A stretch of 64,000 nucleotides of DNA from the sequence record OP172784; one strand, 5' to 3'. The DNA is from Escherichia phage ECO07P1. Below, piece after piece: positions 20,671 through 35,430 of this stretch. Each line of letters opens with the position of its first letter. Position 1 is the first letter of the stretch. The notes under the pieces are model-generated. The model had not been told where the DNA came from. It worked only from the letters and a program-made list of their open reading frames with translations, and searched no databases. The position numbers were made by a program, and so were the translations under genes.

Positions 20671-21367
<697 letters not shown>

Positions 21368-28881: not shown

Positions 28882-29684
<803 letters not shown>

Positions 29685-29685
29685 T

Positions 29686-29716
29686 GTTTACTTCCTCCAA
29701 GGACTTTGATACTATA
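29686..29716 (+). promoter_or_regulatory. early promoter for denV
   Basis: GTTTAC, 18 bp, tGATACTAT; SD ggagg then ATG. Confidence 0.6.
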
Positions 29717-29742
29717 CATTCATCAACTACTTGGAGGAAATT

Positions 29743-30156
29743 ATGACTCGTATCAATTTAACACTTGTTTCTGAACTGACCGACCAACATCTTATGGCTG
29801 AGTATCGTGAATTACCACGCGTATTTGGTGCAGTCCGTAAACATGTTCAAAACGGTAAACGTGTAAAGGATTTTAAAATCTCTCCAACATTTATCTTAGG
29901 CACAGGTCACGTAACATTCTTTTACGACAAACTCGAATTTTTACGTTTACGTCAAATCGAGCTAATCGCTGAATGCTTGAAACGTGGTTTCAAAATCAAG
30001 GACACGACTGTCCAGGATATTTCCGACATCCCTGTCGAATTTCGTAATAATTATGTCCCGTCCGAAGCGTCCATTGCGATAAGTCAAGCTCGCTTAGATG
30101 AAAAAATTGCTCAACGCCCTACTTGGTACAAATACTATGGTAAATCAATTTACTAA
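29743..30156 (+). CDS. denV: endonuclease V (pyrimidine dimer DNA glycosylase)
   Basis: 137 aa; [31 protein letters not shown] matches remembered T4 endo V. Confidence 0.95.
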
Positions 30157-30162
30157 GGAAAA

Positions 30163-30421
30163 ATGAAAATGTATCAAGAATTTATCGCTGAAGCAGATGC
30201 CAAAGGCCCCAAATTTAAAGTTAAAGCTTTCGTTGGTGATGCGGAAGACTTTGGCTCATTAAAACGTAATGGGTATTTTTCCTAGGCGGCGATGGTAGAG
30301 AAATAAACACCTATGCAAAACGTAGTGAATTGCTTATGTTGCTGCAAGTCCTAAAGTAGATGTTGACGATATTGGATACGATTTTAACAACTTCGGAATT
30401 ATTTCTGGCGGTGAAGCTTAA
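30163..30421 (+). pseudogene. decayed CTS-type internal-protein gene (frame broken at least twice)
   Basis: ATG with SD aaggaaaa encodes MKMYQEFIAEADAKGPK..., stop after 40 codons; coding-like sequence continues in two other frames. Confidence 0.4.
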
Positions 30422-30424
30422 ACG

Positions 30425-30455
30425 GTTTACGCTTAAGTATTAATATGGTATAATT
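30425..30455 (+). promoter_or_regulatory. early promoter for ipIII
   Basis: GTTTAC, 18 bp, tGGTATAAT. Confidence 0.6.
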
Positions 30456-30484
30456 ACTCTATCAAAACAAACAAGGAAACAAAA

Positions 30485-31063
30485 ATGAAAACGTATAAAG
30501 AATTTATTGCTGAAGCTTCTGTGGAAAAGGCCAAAGGCATTAATAAGGACGAGTGGAACTATCGTGGTGGAAACGGCTTTGACCCTAAAACTGCTCCACT
30601 TGAACGATATCTAGCCACAAAAGCTTCTGACTTTAAAGCTTTCGCTTGGGAAGGACTTCGCTGGCGTACCGATCTAAATATTGAAGTTGATGGGCTTAAA
30701 TTTGGCCATATTCAAGATGTTGTTGCTAGTAACTTGGATGCAGCTTTTGTTAAAGCTGACGGTGACCTTCGTCGCTGGAATTTAAAACTATTCTCTAAAC
30801 AGAAAGGCCCGGTGTTTGTGCCTAAAGCTGGTAAATGGGTTATTGATAATAAATTAGCTAAGGCTGTCAACTACGCTGGTCTTGAATTCGCCAAGCACAA
30901 ATCATCATGGAAAGGTCTGGATGCAATGGCTTTCCGTAAAGAATTTGCTGATGTTATGGCTAAAGGCGGCTTTAAGGCAGAAATAGATACCTCTAAAGGT
31001 ACGTTTAAGGACGCTAATGTTCAGTACGCTTATGCCGTTGCTAACGCAGCCCGTGGTAATTAA
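30485..31063 (+). CDS. ipIII: internal protein III
   Basis: 192 aa; CTS MKTYKEFIAEA; size as T4 IPIII. Confidence 0.8.
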   Translation: MKTYKEFIAEASVEKAKGINKDEWNYRGGNGFDPKTAPLERYLATKASDFKAFAWEGLRWRTDLNIEVDGLKFGHIQDVVASNLDAAFVKADGDLRRWNLKLFSKQKGPVFVPKAGKWVIDNKLAKAVNYAGLEFAKHKSSWKGLDAMAFRKEFADVMAKGGFKAEIDTSKGTFKDANVQYAYAVANAARGN

Positions 31064-31104
31064 TAAGGCCGATACTTAGGCTTATTTACATTTAAAGGAA
31101 ACAT

Positions 31105-31407
31105 ATGAAAACATATCAAGAATTTATTACTGAAGCTCGAGTGAGTGCAGGTAAATTAGAATCCGCTATAAATAAAAAGGCCCATTCATTTCATGATTTG
31201 TCCGATAAAGACCGTAAGAAACTTATAAGCCTTTATATTGACAAAGAGCGTATTCTCGCTCTTCCTGGCGCTAATGAAGGTAAACAGGCCAAGCCTTTGA
31301 ATGCTGTCGAAAAGAAAATTGATAACTTTGCTTCTAAATTCGGTATGTCTATGGATGACCTTCAGCAAGCGGCTATCGAAGCAGCTAAAGTAATTAAAGG
31401 TAAATAA
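31105..31407 (+). CDS. ipII: internal protein II
   Basis: 100 aa; CTS MKTYQEFITEA; size as T4 IPII. Confidence 0.8.
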   Translation: MKTYQEFITEARVSAGKLESAINKKAHSFHDLSDKDRKKLISLYIDKERILALPGANEGKQAKPLNAVEKKIDNFASKFGMSMDDLQQAAIEAAKVIKGK

Positions 31408-31550: not shown

Positions 31551-32090
31551 ATGAGAACATTTTTAACTGGTCCTTATCTATCCCTGATGAATGCTTTTAC
31601 ACACCATTCTGATGCTAGAGTAGAAGAAATTTGTAAGAATGATTATGTCCCACCATTTGAAGACTTACTCAAACAGTATTGCACACTTCGACTAGATGGT
31701 GGACGTCAATCCGGTAAATCAACTGCAGTAACTAATTTTGCCGCTAATTGGTTGTATGATGGCGGAACAGTTATTGTTCTTTCTAATACTTCAGCTTACG
31801 CTAAAATTTCTGCAAATAACATTAAAAAGGAATTTTCGCGTTATTCTAATGATGATATACGTTTTCGTTTATTTACTGATTCTGTCCGTAGTTTTATCGG
31901 TAATAAAGGAAGCAAGTTCAGAGGTTTATCGCTTTCGCGGATTTTGTATATAATCGATGAGCCTGTTAAATCTCCTGATATGGATAAAATTTACGATATT
32001 CATATTGAAACTGTGCACCACTGTTGCAATAGTAAATGCTGCATTGGTGGTATTATTCGTCCACAGTTTTTCATAATCGGAATGCAATGA
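31551..32090 (+). CDS. P-loop NTPase-like protein
   Basis: 179 aa; Walker A-like GGRQSGKST and Walker B-like ILYIIDEP. Confidence 0.6.
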   Translation: MRTFLTGPYLSLMNAFTHHSDARVEEICKNDYVPPFEDLLKQYCTLRLDGGRQSGKSTAVTNFAANWLYDGGTVIVLSNTSAYAKISANNIKKEFSRYSNDDIRFRLFTDSVRSFIGNKGSKFRGLSLSRILYIIDEPVKSPDMDKIYDIHIETVHHCCNSKCCIGGIIRPQFFIIGMQ

Positions 32091-32269
32091 TGACAGACAC
32101 GCAACTTTTCGAATATCTTTATTTTTCGCCAAAAACTGTTAAAAATAAATTGGTGAATCATTTTGAAATTTTGGCAAATAACAACGTCTTGAGCGAATTT
32201 TATCCTAAGCAATACAAATTACAAAAAAGGCGTATTCAAAGGATGCAGAGTTTTGTGCACTGCTCCTAA
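32087..32269 (+). CDS. hypothetical small protein
   Basis: 60 aa from ATG overlapping upstream stop (ATGATGA); weak SD. Confidence 0.4.
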   Translation: MMTDTQLFEYLYFSPKTVKNKLVNHFEILANNNVLSEFYPKQYKLQKRRIQRMQSFVHCS

Positions 32270-32425
32270 TGCAAGATTAATGAATAAAATTCCATATTTT
32301 ACCATGGAATTTATTGATGGGCCTTTTAAAGGACTAATCACGCAGAGTTTAATGGCATATGATTCTGAGCCATTTTTAATTAAAGAACAATCTTGGATAA
32401 ATTTATTTTCTAATTGAGAGGTTAT

Positions 32426-32788
32426 ATGAAAGCATATCAAATTCTTGAAGGCACGCATAAAGGTACTATTTATTTTGAAGATGGTATTCAAGCACGAATT
32501 ATTGTCTCTAAAACTTTTAAAGAGGACTCTTTTGTAGACCCAGAAATTTTCTATGGTTTGCATGCCCGTGAAATTGAAATTGAAACACAACCTACAGTTA
32601 AAATTGAAGGTGGTCAACACCTGAACGTTAACGTTCTGCGTCGCGAAACTCTGGAAGATGCAGTTAAGCATCCGGAAAAATATCCGCAGCTAACCATCCG
32701 TGTATCCGGTTATGCAGTTCGCTTTAACTCTCTGACTCCGGAACAGCAGCGCGACGTTATCGCTCGTACCTTTACTGAGAGTCTGTAA
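32426..32788 (+). CDS. autonomous glycyl-radical cofactor (GrcA/YfiD-like; T4 Y06I-type)
   Basis: 120 aa; C-terminal about 59 aa ([60 protein letters not shown]) match remembered E. coli GrcA including the RVSGY glycyl-radical motif. Confidence 0.85.
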
Positions 32789-33009
32789 TGGCAAAGATAA
32801 TTATTGAAGGTTCTAAAGATGTGCTAAATGCTTTCGCCGAATGGTTTAGTAATTCAGGCGAACAGCAATTTAATGAAGCGTGGAATATGGGTGATATTGA
32901 TGGAATTTATCCTACGACAGAAATTTCTGTTCAAGGATATGGAATTCATGAGCCTATTCGTTTAGTTGAATATGATTTAGGTACTGGTGAGGAAGTAAAA
33001 TATGATTGA
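32788..33009 (+). CDS. hypothetical protein
   Basis: 73 aa; overlapping start/stop with neighbours. Confidence 0.55.
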   Translation: MAKIIIEGSKDVLNAFAEWFSNSGEQQFNEAWNMGDIDGIYPTTEISVQGYGIHEPIRLVEYDLGTGEEVKYD

Positions 33010-33268
33010 AGATATTAAGGGTTATAAGCCACATACTGAAGAGAAAATCGGTAAAGTGAATGCTATTAAAGACGCTGAAGTTCGTTTAGGACTTATCTTT
33101 GGTGCTTTATACGATGAATTCTGGGAAGCACTAGATAATTGTGAAGACTGTGAATTCGCGAAGAATTATGCTGAAAGCCTTGATCAGTTAACTATTGCTA
33201 AAACTAAACTCAAAGAAGCCAGTATGTGGGCTTGTCGTGCTGTGTTCCAACCAGAGGAAAAATACTAA
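33002..33268 (+). CDS. hypothetical small helical protein
   Basis: 88 aa; stop overlaps next start (TAATG). Confidence 0.55.
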
Positions 33269-33546
33269 TGGCTCAATTAAGCGCAGGGTTTGGTTATGAG
33301 TATTATACTGCCCCTCGTCGTGTATCTGTTGCTCCTAAGAAAATTCAAAGTCTTGATGACTTCCAGGAAGTAGTTCGTAACGCTTTCCAGGACTATGCAC
33401 GTTATCTTAAAGAAGATTCACAGGACTGTCTCGAAGAAGATGAAATTGCTTACTATGAGCAGCGTCTTGAACAGCTTAAAAACCTACATGAGGTTCGTGC
33501 AGAAGTTACAAAGTCTATGAATAAATTGATTAGATTTAAAGAATAA
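33268..33546 (+). CDS. hypothetical small helical protein
   Basis: 92 aa from MAQLSAGF; track ORF begins upstream. Confidence 0.55.
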
Positions 33547-33548
33547 CT

Positions 33549-33579
33549 GTTTACTTTTCCTCTTGACTGTGGTATAATT
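33549..33579 (+). promoter_or_regulatory. early promoter for regB
   Basis: GTTTAC, 18 bp, tGGTATAAT; SD gaggag. Confidence 0.6.
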
Positions 33580-33605
33580 TTTCTATCAGTTAAGAGGAGA
33601 ATAAC

Positions 33606-34067
33606 ATGACTATCAACACAGAAGTTTTTATCCGTCGAAATAAGCTCCGTCGTCACTTTGAGTCGGAGTTTCGTCAAATTAACAATGAGATTCGTGAGGC
33701 ATCAAAAGCAACAGGAGTCTCATCGTTTCATCTAAAATATTCTCAGCATCTTCTTGATCGTGCAATTCAGCGGGAGATTGATGAGACATATGTTTTTGAA
33801 TTATTCCACAAAATAAAAGACCATGTTTTAGAAGTTAATGAATTCCTGAGTATGCCTCCACGCCCTGATATTGACGAAGATTTTATTGATGGTGTTGAAT
33901 ATCGTCCTGGACGTTTAGAAATCACAGATGGAAATCTTTGGCTTGGATTTACAGTTTGTAAACCTAATGCGAAGTTCAAAGACCCGTCGCTTCAATGTAG
34001 GATGGCAATTATCAACAGTCGTCGTTTACCAGGAAAGGCTTCTAAAGCAGTAATTAAAACTCAATGA
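33606..34067 (+). CDS. regB: site-specific RNA endonuclease RegB
   Basis: 153 aa; size and synteny as T4 RegB. Confidence 0.8.
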   Translation: MTINTEVFIRRNKLRRHFESEFRQINNEIREASKATGVSSFHLKYSQHLLDRAIQREIDETYVFELFHKIKDHVLEVNEFLSMPPRPDIDEDFIDGVEYRPGRLEITDGNLWLGFTVCKPNAKFKDPSLQCRMAIINSRRLPGKASKAVIKTQ

Positions 34068-34620: not shown

Positions 34621-34954
34621 AATTTTGGTTTTATGTGTAGGATTAATTTCATTTTCTGCGTTAGCAAATACATCATACACTGAAATTAGAGAGTATGCAA
34701 ACCGTACTGCCGCGGATTATTGTGGGAAAAATAAAGCATGCCAAGCTGAATTTGCACAGAAATTAATATATGCATATAAAGACGGAGAAAGAGATAAATC
34801 AAGCAGATATAAAAATGATACTTTATTAAAACGATATGCTAAAAAGTGGAATACTTTAGAATGTTCAGTTGCGGAGGAGAAAGATAAAGCCGCTTGTCAT
34901 TCAATGGTTGACCGTTTGGTAGATTCTTATAATCGAGGATTGAGTACTAGATGA
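34613..34954 (+). CDS. small secreted protein (at the position of T4 vs)
   Basis: 113 aa with signal-peptide-like N-terminus; several Cys. Confidence 0.55.
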   Translation: MTKILVLCVGLISFSALANTSYTEIREYANRTAADYCGKNKACQAEFAQKLIYAYKDGERDKSSRYKNDTLLKRYAKKWNTLECSVAEEKDKAACHSMVDRLVDSYNRGLSTR

Positions 34955-35430
34955 TTGTAAAATATATCAAGGGCGATATTGTCGCCCTATTTCTTCAAGG
35001 AAATATTATTGCGCACGGGTGCAATTGTTTTCATACTATGGGTTCAGGTGTAGCGGGTCAATTAGCAAGGGCCTATCCTAAAATTTTAGAAATAGATAAA
35101 ACCACTACCGAGTACGGTTCTCGTGATAAATTAGGCGATATGTCTATTGTTTTTAAGCATAGTCCTACGGGATTTGGTATATGCTATAACCTGTATACGC
35201 AATACGAACCGGGTCCTAATCTTGATTATGGTGCTTTAGTAAATTGCATGATAGAATTAAATCTACAGGCAGAAACCCTTTTGTTTAAACCAGTAATTTA
35301 CATTCCACGCATAGGTTGCGGTATTGCTGGAGGCGATTGGGATAAGGTTTCTAAATTAATCGACATGTTTACTCCTGATATTGATTTAATAGTGGTGGAT
35401 TATGAAAGCACATTACCCGCATCCGTTTGA
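34951..35430 (+). CDS. macro-domain (ADP-ribose binding/processing) protein
   Basis: 159 aa; KGDIV...AHGCNCFHTMGSGVAGQL and IPRIGCGIAGG resemble macro-domain motifs. Confidence 0.65.
   Translation: MIVKYIKGDIVALFLQGNIIAHGCNCFHTMGSGVAGQLARAYPKILEIDKTTTEYGSRDKLGDMSIVFKHSPTGFGICYNLYTQYEPGPNLDYGALVNCMIELNLQAETLLFKPVIYIPRIGCGIAGGDWDKVSKLIDMFTPDIDLIVVDYESTLPASV

Follow-up and report, generated by a model that had tools for sequence, protein, structure and literature searches.

The closest described counterparts of the genes reported here are those of phage T4, which has already been stated to encode both Acb1 and Acb2 (PMC10312549). Acb1 (T4 57B; PDB 7T26/7T27) is an enzyme that degrades CBASS signals and complements Acb2, which is a binding sponge; Acb1 degrades cyclic oligonucleotides, reportedly over a narrower spectrum than the one bound by Acb2 (PMC10312549). 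The Acb2 of T4 is the protein Vs.4, which binds 3'3'-cGAMP with a KD of ~30 nM and forms a hexamer with three ligands, the bases stacking on Y8 and F82 and the polar contacts being made by H11, K23 and R79 (PMC10097602). Mutations at L29, A66, A73, A77, T12 and S74 abolish inhibition of the CBASS effector CapV, and where the mutated residue belongs to the hexamer interface, the hexamer is disrupted as well (PMC10097602). Further, Y8A and F82C are loss-of-function alleles of Acb2 (PMC12657218). T4-Acb2 binds cyclic dinucleotides and not cA3 or cAAG, a restriction for which Y37, A57, L60, D61, T64 and T68 are held responsible (PMC10312549). T4 Acb2 is also necessary and sufficient to trigger Panoptes, a defence set off when a decoy nucleotide is lost (PMC12657218).

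The neighbouring T4 gene vs.3 lets the phage escape type IV Thoeris and is both necessary and sufficient for the block, as its deletion sensitises T4 and its expression rescues T6 (PMC13243611). Its product, named TadIV-1, binds N7-cADPR with a KD of ~216 nM and releases the ligand intact (PMC13243611). TadIV-1 is a homodimer in which each protomer consists of two antiparallel helices (PDB 9WIW) and for which a flexible N-terminal region is required, R17, R18 and K24 being important in the T4 protein; the binding mode has been derived from co-folding models and mutagenesis, and ligand-bound density was never obtained (PMC13243611). Two groups of homologs are distinguished, an active one of long proteins (~90 aa, >80) and an inactive one of short proteins (~70 aa) (PMC13243611). 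Phage T2 carries a functional homolog and is sensitive nevertheless, which has been taken to mean that expression level matters (PMC13243611), and presence of the gene thus does not guarantee the phenotype. Sequestration of N7-cADPR and inhibition of type IV Thoeris are also known from Tad2_71, a Tad2 homolog (PMC12393519), which belongs to an unrelated protein family, has a broader ligand range and is a functional analogue of TadIV-1 rather than a relative.

Layout and genomic setting of the vs.5 to regB region

The DNA analysed here is a window of 64,000 nucleotides from Escherichia phage ECO07P1 (sequence record OP172784), in which two small ORFs directly precede regB (Table 1). The initial annotation had placed two small helical genes upstream of regB, in the slot of T4 vs.3 and vs.4, and had considered that one of them might be the ortholog of Vs.4/Acb2. 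The coordinates hold, with both genes on the + strand, as does the identity of the adjoining regB, and both names of the slot apply, the 88-aa ORF being Vs.4 and the 92-aa ORF being Vs.3, a predicted sponge for a different signal, N7-cADPR. The description of both products as helical also agrees with what is known, since Acb2 has been described as a helical hairpin and the 9WIW structure shows TadIV-1 as a pair of antiparallel helices; the 92-aa product, when modelled (see below), also came out helical, at low confidence.

Table 1 Features of the vs.5 to regB region and the distant acb1 gene, with positions in the window.
Feature	Position	Strand	Remarks
57B / acb1	20912-21367	+	cyclic-oligonucleotide phosphodiesterase, 151 aa; PF23474; PDB 7T26
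vs.5	32788-33009	+	73 aa, acidic; stop codon 33007-33009; PHROG 1986, unknown function
Shine-Dalgarno-like GAGGAAG of vs.4	32989-32995	+	read from sequence
vs.4 / acb2 CDS	33002-33268	+	ATG start, 88 aa, TAA 33266-33268 (read from sequence); predicted cyclic-dinucleotide sponge; PDB 7UQ2, PF24729, PHROG 717
Codon 34 of vs.4	33101-33103	+	encodes G
Shine-Dalgarno-like AGAGGAA of vs.3	33253-33259	+	8 nt upstream of ATG; from sequence
TAATG stop/start overlap of vs.4 and vs.3	33266-33270	+	one base shared; from sequence
vs.3 / tadIV-1 CDS	33268-33546	+	ATG start, 92 aa, TAA 33544-33546 (read from sequence); predicted N7-cADPR sponge, long form; T4 Vs.3, PDB 9WIW, PHROG 2037
Sigma-70-like promoter, TTTACT-17 nt-TATAAT, upstream TG	33550-33578	+	consensus scan, 10/12; consensus match only
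GGAG within the regB Shine-Dalgarno	33596-33599	+
regB endoribonuclease	33606-34067	+	Pfam REGB_T4 (PF10715), E 1.5e-68

The 1.7 kb surrounding the vs.4/vs.3 pair show 97.5-98.1% nucleotide identity to many Tequatrovirus (T4-like) genomes, and the gene order vs.8, vs.7, vs.6, vs.5, vs.4, vs.3, regB, vs.1, vs, tk.4 ... tk is the one annotated in T4 GT7 and further T4-like phages. The shorter series vs.5-vs.4-vs.3-regB, continuing with vs.1 and vs, is kept across four genera, namely Tequatrovirus, Gaprivervirus (VR20), Dhakavirus (QL01) and Kanagawavirus (Kosakonia phage 305), in whose records the coding sequences are annotated as adjoining or overlapping and vs.4 and vs.3 have their boundary base in common. 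The start codon of vs.4 lies inside the end of vs.5, giving an 8-nt overlap that is likewise annotated in phages 236Ecol005PP and P8. Together with the TAATG overlap between vs.4 and vs.3, this suggests that vs.5, vs.4 and vs.3 are translated in a coupled manner from one transcript. The promoter-like site is situated between vs.3 and regB, where the run of genes from vs.8 to vs.3 ends. As a separate observation, the Shine-Dalgarno sequence of regB includes GGAG, which the T4 GT7 annotation gives as the motif cleaved by RegB, whereas GGAA stands in the Shine-Dalgarno-like sequences upstream of vs.4 and vs.3.

Both ORFs (protein accessions WAX12956.1 for Vs.4 and WAX12957.1 for Vs.3) are genuine genes rather than products of chance, given their matches to solved structures (E 1.7e-56 to PDB 7UQ2 for the 88-aa product and E 6.9e-38 to PDB 9WIW for the 92-aa product) and the number of phage records with tblastn homologs, which amounts to 1231 for Vs.4/Acb2 and 651 for Vs.3/TadIV-1 in a searched collection of 50,697 records that does not include ECO07P1. 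NCBIfam is without a model for Vs.3, Vs.4 or Vs.5. Gene identity, synteny and the conservation of every published functional residue are observed directly, and we are highly confident in reading the region as T4 vs.4 plus vs.3 in a Tequatrovirus genome, with both products predicted from their sequences to sequester immune second messengers.

The 88-aa product and its residue 34

Of the two ORFs, the 88-aa one is orthologous to Vs.4/Acb2. It occupies the same slot as the T4 gene, and its product is identical to the crystallised T4 Vs.4 (7UQ2) at 87 of the 88 residues, the one substitution being D34G, so that the possibility that neither ORF would resemble Vs.4 does not apply. In addition, the protein passes the Pfam family PF24729 (Acb2_Tad1_hairpin) with 67.4 bits against a cut-off of 27 (E 1.3e-18) and falls in PHROG 717 (E 1.6e-31), which is the group from which Jenson et al. 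took their Vs.4 homologs (PMC10097602). In the records of syntenic phages, the gene is labelled 'anti-CBASS protein 2'. A much more remote member of the same Pfam family is the Acb2 of PaMx33 (PDB 8H2J, 8IXZ; PMC10312549), in which the tyrosine of the N-terminal 'KGY' and the lysine of helix 1 align with those of the present protein at an overall similarity of E ~0.14 (phmmer) and a reported identity of 24%.

All residues in contact with cGAMP (Y8, F82, H11, K23, R79 and S74) are present and invariant relative to T4, the residues of the hexamer interface (L29, F33, A66, A73 and A77) are all kept, and T12 and L60 are likewise present. The six positions held responsible for ligand specificity, Y37, A57, L60, D61, T64 and T68, are also identical to those of T4-Acb2, and as these are unchanged, the sponge is expected to be restricted to cyclic dinucleotides. 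Given the 99% identity to a tested protein, the product would probably assemble into a hexamer with three cyclic dinucleotides and inhibit CBASS in vivo.

When Vs.4 is aligned with its counterparts in T4 and 236Ecol005PP, position 34 is the sole variable column. The residue is G in ECO07P1, D in 7UQ2, N in T4 GT7 and K or D in more distant homologs, and the residues flanking it are invariant among the Acb2 homologs compared. The G34 allele is rare: the exact protein occurs in 0 of the 1231 homolog-carrying phage records of the collection described above, where the best match reaches 98.9%, and it was otherwise found in one 1.8-kb Logan contig. This scarcity, and the location of G34 next to F33, whose replacement by alanine gives an approximately 50:50 mix of hexamer and non-hexamer (PMC10097602), could be read as a sign that the substitution weakens the hexamer and leaves the phage with an acb2 gene of weak anti-CBASS activity. 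We consider this very unlikely, as D, N, K and G are all tolerated at position 34 across homologs with invariant neighbours, the ORF is intact with all tested functional residues retained, and at least one further isolate or contig has the same allele. Variation at this one position amid invariant flanks makes G34, even though it lies beside F33, a neutral-looking polymorphism. The alleles present here, that is G34 in Acb2 together with E64 and T81 in TadIV-1 (see below), would on the strength of their near-identity be expected to behave like the tested T4 proteins.

The 92-aa product, its name and its start

The 92-aa ORF occupies the slot of T4 vs.3, and its product, assigned to PHROG 2037, is 98% identical to Vs.3 of T4 GT7. 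The one strong match to a solved structure is TadIV-1 of UPEC07 (9WIW), with ~75% identity. By these similarities the ORF is vs.3, and its product is TadIV-1, a predicted N7-cADPR sponge of the long form, as it aligns over the full length with the long homologs. R17, R18 and K24/K25 (T4 numbering) are present, as are the conserved helix residues K48, E49 and H74, which correspond to K57, E58 and H83 of UPEC07. Relative to T4 GT7, T is replaced by E at position 64, as in UPEC07, and S by T at position 81, and both positions are variable. The UPEC07 type, found also in VR20, differs from the present protein by a 9-residue loop insertion. The near-identity to tested proteins makes it probable that Vs.3 of ECO07P1 would homodimerise, bind N7-cADPR and block type IV Thoeris.

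A two-helix fold is implied by the identity to 9WIW. A single-sequence AF2 model, of low confidence (mean pLDDT 68.5, pTM 0.37), places helices at residues 29-50 and 57-91. Foldseek comparison of this low-confidence model with the PDB gave no match at E <= 0.001 (best E 1.9); the library used ends on 2026-04-08, five days before the 9WIW paper, which may explain the absence of that structure. As helical hairpin sponges, the two small proteins were also considered as tandem paralogs, which was not supported, with BLASTP giving no alignment of Vs.3 with Vs.4 and hhalign a probability of 2.2% (from shallow profiles of 5-6 sequences).

The short TadIV-1 homologs (69 aa) of QL01 and Kosakonia phage 305 resemble Vs.3 of ECO07P1 in the predicted two-helix core and in their position between vs.4 and regB, but they are without residues 2-24, the N-terminal loop, whereas the protein described here has this extension. 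These short proteins are reported to be inactive against type IV Thoeris (PMC13243611). In both phages the short gene abuts the stop codon of an intact acb2 and lies upstream of regB, and its retention in that slot makes it seem maintained, perhaps for another target.

Two questions concerning the identity of the 92-aa product arise from public records, one being whether it is an endoribonuclease related to RegB and not a signal sponge. The molecule name of PDB 9WIW is 'Endoribonuclease', and GenBank homologs carry labels such as 'endoribonuclease RegB T4-bacteriophage encoded' and 'putative endoribonuclease' (e.g. PV390659.2, OL615012.1). Against these names, the paper in which 9WIW was deposited presents the protein as the sponge TadIV-1 and describes the fold as a bare two-helix hairpin dimer for which no catalytic site is given (PMC13243611), and R17A/R18A/K24A mutants lose the anti-Thoeris effect, as reported for T4. 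The Pfam search of Vs.3 returned no match to REGB_T4 (PF10715) or a nuclease family, its sole match being a sub-threshold one to Tex_N at 19 bits, and the genuine regB lies next door with the unambiguous Pfam score given in Table 1. We therefore reject the name as an annotation artefact and give a nuclease identity next to no credence; the label looks like one that has spread from the adjoining regB. The other question is whether the product is instead a 106-aa protein starting from the GTG at 33226, as would follow from a mechanical ORF list, in which 33226-33546 is the longest ORF, and as is annotated in one GenBank record (P0023). With such an extension, 43 nt would be shared with vs.4, whereas a separate Shine-Dalgarno-like sequence precedes the ATG at 33268, Vs.3 homologs begin with MAQ or MSQ, and in other genera the equivalent methionine lies right at the vs.4 stop. 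T4 Vs.3 is, moreover, annotated as 92 aa and has been expressed and found active at that length (PMC13243611). The Shine-Dalgarno-like sequence, the methionine of the homologs and the 92-aa T4 protein make the ATG at 33268 the better start, and the longer product is highly improbable.

Acb1, the proposed mode of action and neighbouring genes

The initial annotation had also supposed that the phage may carry the genes of both anti-CBASS proteins of T4, and this is borne out, as acb2 is accompanied by acb1, ~12 kb away from the vs.4/vs.3 pair. The ORF annotated as 57B is confirmed as a full-length member of the Acb1 family, with 202.7 bits against Pfam PF23474 (cut-off 27, E 2.6e-60) and E 4.1e-62 against the Acb1 structure 7T26. 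Its translation includes two H-x-T motifs, H43-S-T and H112-I-T, which we take to be the catalytic ones of 2H-phosphoesterases.

With Vs.4 being Acb2 and Vs.3 being TadIV-1, the adjoining genes form a pair that would counter two different signalling defences. In the proposed sequence of events, infection would be followed by the synthesis of cyclic dinucleotides such as cGAMP by host CD-NTases and of N7-cADPR by the TIR protein of type IV Thoeris. Hexamers of Acb2 would each take up three molecules of 3'3'-cGAMP, one per dimer interface, and by this binding would keep cyclic dinucleotides from CBASS effectors such as CapV. In TadIV-1, N7-cADPR would be bound by the N-terminal loop (R17, R18 and K24) of one protomer and helix alpha1 of the other, and with the signal sequestered in this way type IV Thoeris would not activate its caspase-like effector. 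Both sponges would bind their signals without degrading them, so that signal levels stay below the threshold of the effectors. Carrying acb1, acb2 and tadIV-1, the phage should get past type IV Thoeris as well as CBASS systems that signal through cyclic dinucleotides, and the same gene set predicts sensitivity to decoy systems of the Panoptes type, by which Acb2 is sensed.

The presence of Acb1, Acb2 and TadIV-1 in T4-like phages is already published and is nothing new here; the value of the result lies in the annotation, and not the discovery, of three published counter-defence genes. Public records often call these genes 'hypothetical' or mislabel Vs.3, and correct labels help in host-range prediction and in the screening of phages for therapy.

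The cassette of vs.5, vs.4 and vs.3, which at least four genera of Tevenvirinae retain, consists of overlapping and probably co-translated genes, two of whose three products are sponges for different immune signals, judging by the tested T4 proteins. The remaining product, the 73-aa Vs.5, has no match in Pfam, NCBIfam, the PDB or the literature. Its gene is kept in the same position in the four genera and is annotated as similar to T4 Vs.5 in VR20. That Vs.5 is another inhibitor of signalling defences or a partner of the sponges is a speculation that we regard as unlikely.

Several further features of the surrounding DNA were noted. In the vs.7 homolog (32087-32417), a run of six A (A6, 32223-32228) stands in place of the A5 in T4 GT7 and phage 236Ecol005PP, and through the extra A the gene is broken up into an ORF at 32036-32269 and a second one, in another frame, at 32253-32417. 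Either the gene is a true pseudogene or the additional base is a sequencing error in the homopolymer. The gene order within 28918-31407 differs from that of T4 GT7, where denV lies after ipII. In ECO07P1, a small internal-protein-like ORF (within 29388-29684) comes after the lysozyme gene e (28918-29406), and next are denV (within 29731-30156) and then two internal-protein-like genes at 30485-31063 and 31105-31407. Three ORFs within this stretch have in common an N-terminal MKTY-EF motif, similar to the sequence by which the internal proteins of T4 are targeted to the capsid. Closer to the sponge pair, Vs.6 (32426-32788) is an autonomous glycyl-radical cofactor of the GrcA-like type (Pfam Gly_radical, 2.2e-18). 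Also near the pair is Tk.4 (34951-35430), which has a Pfam Macro domain (1.3e-07) and, to go by this domain, might act on ADP-ribose or ADP-ribosylated targets.
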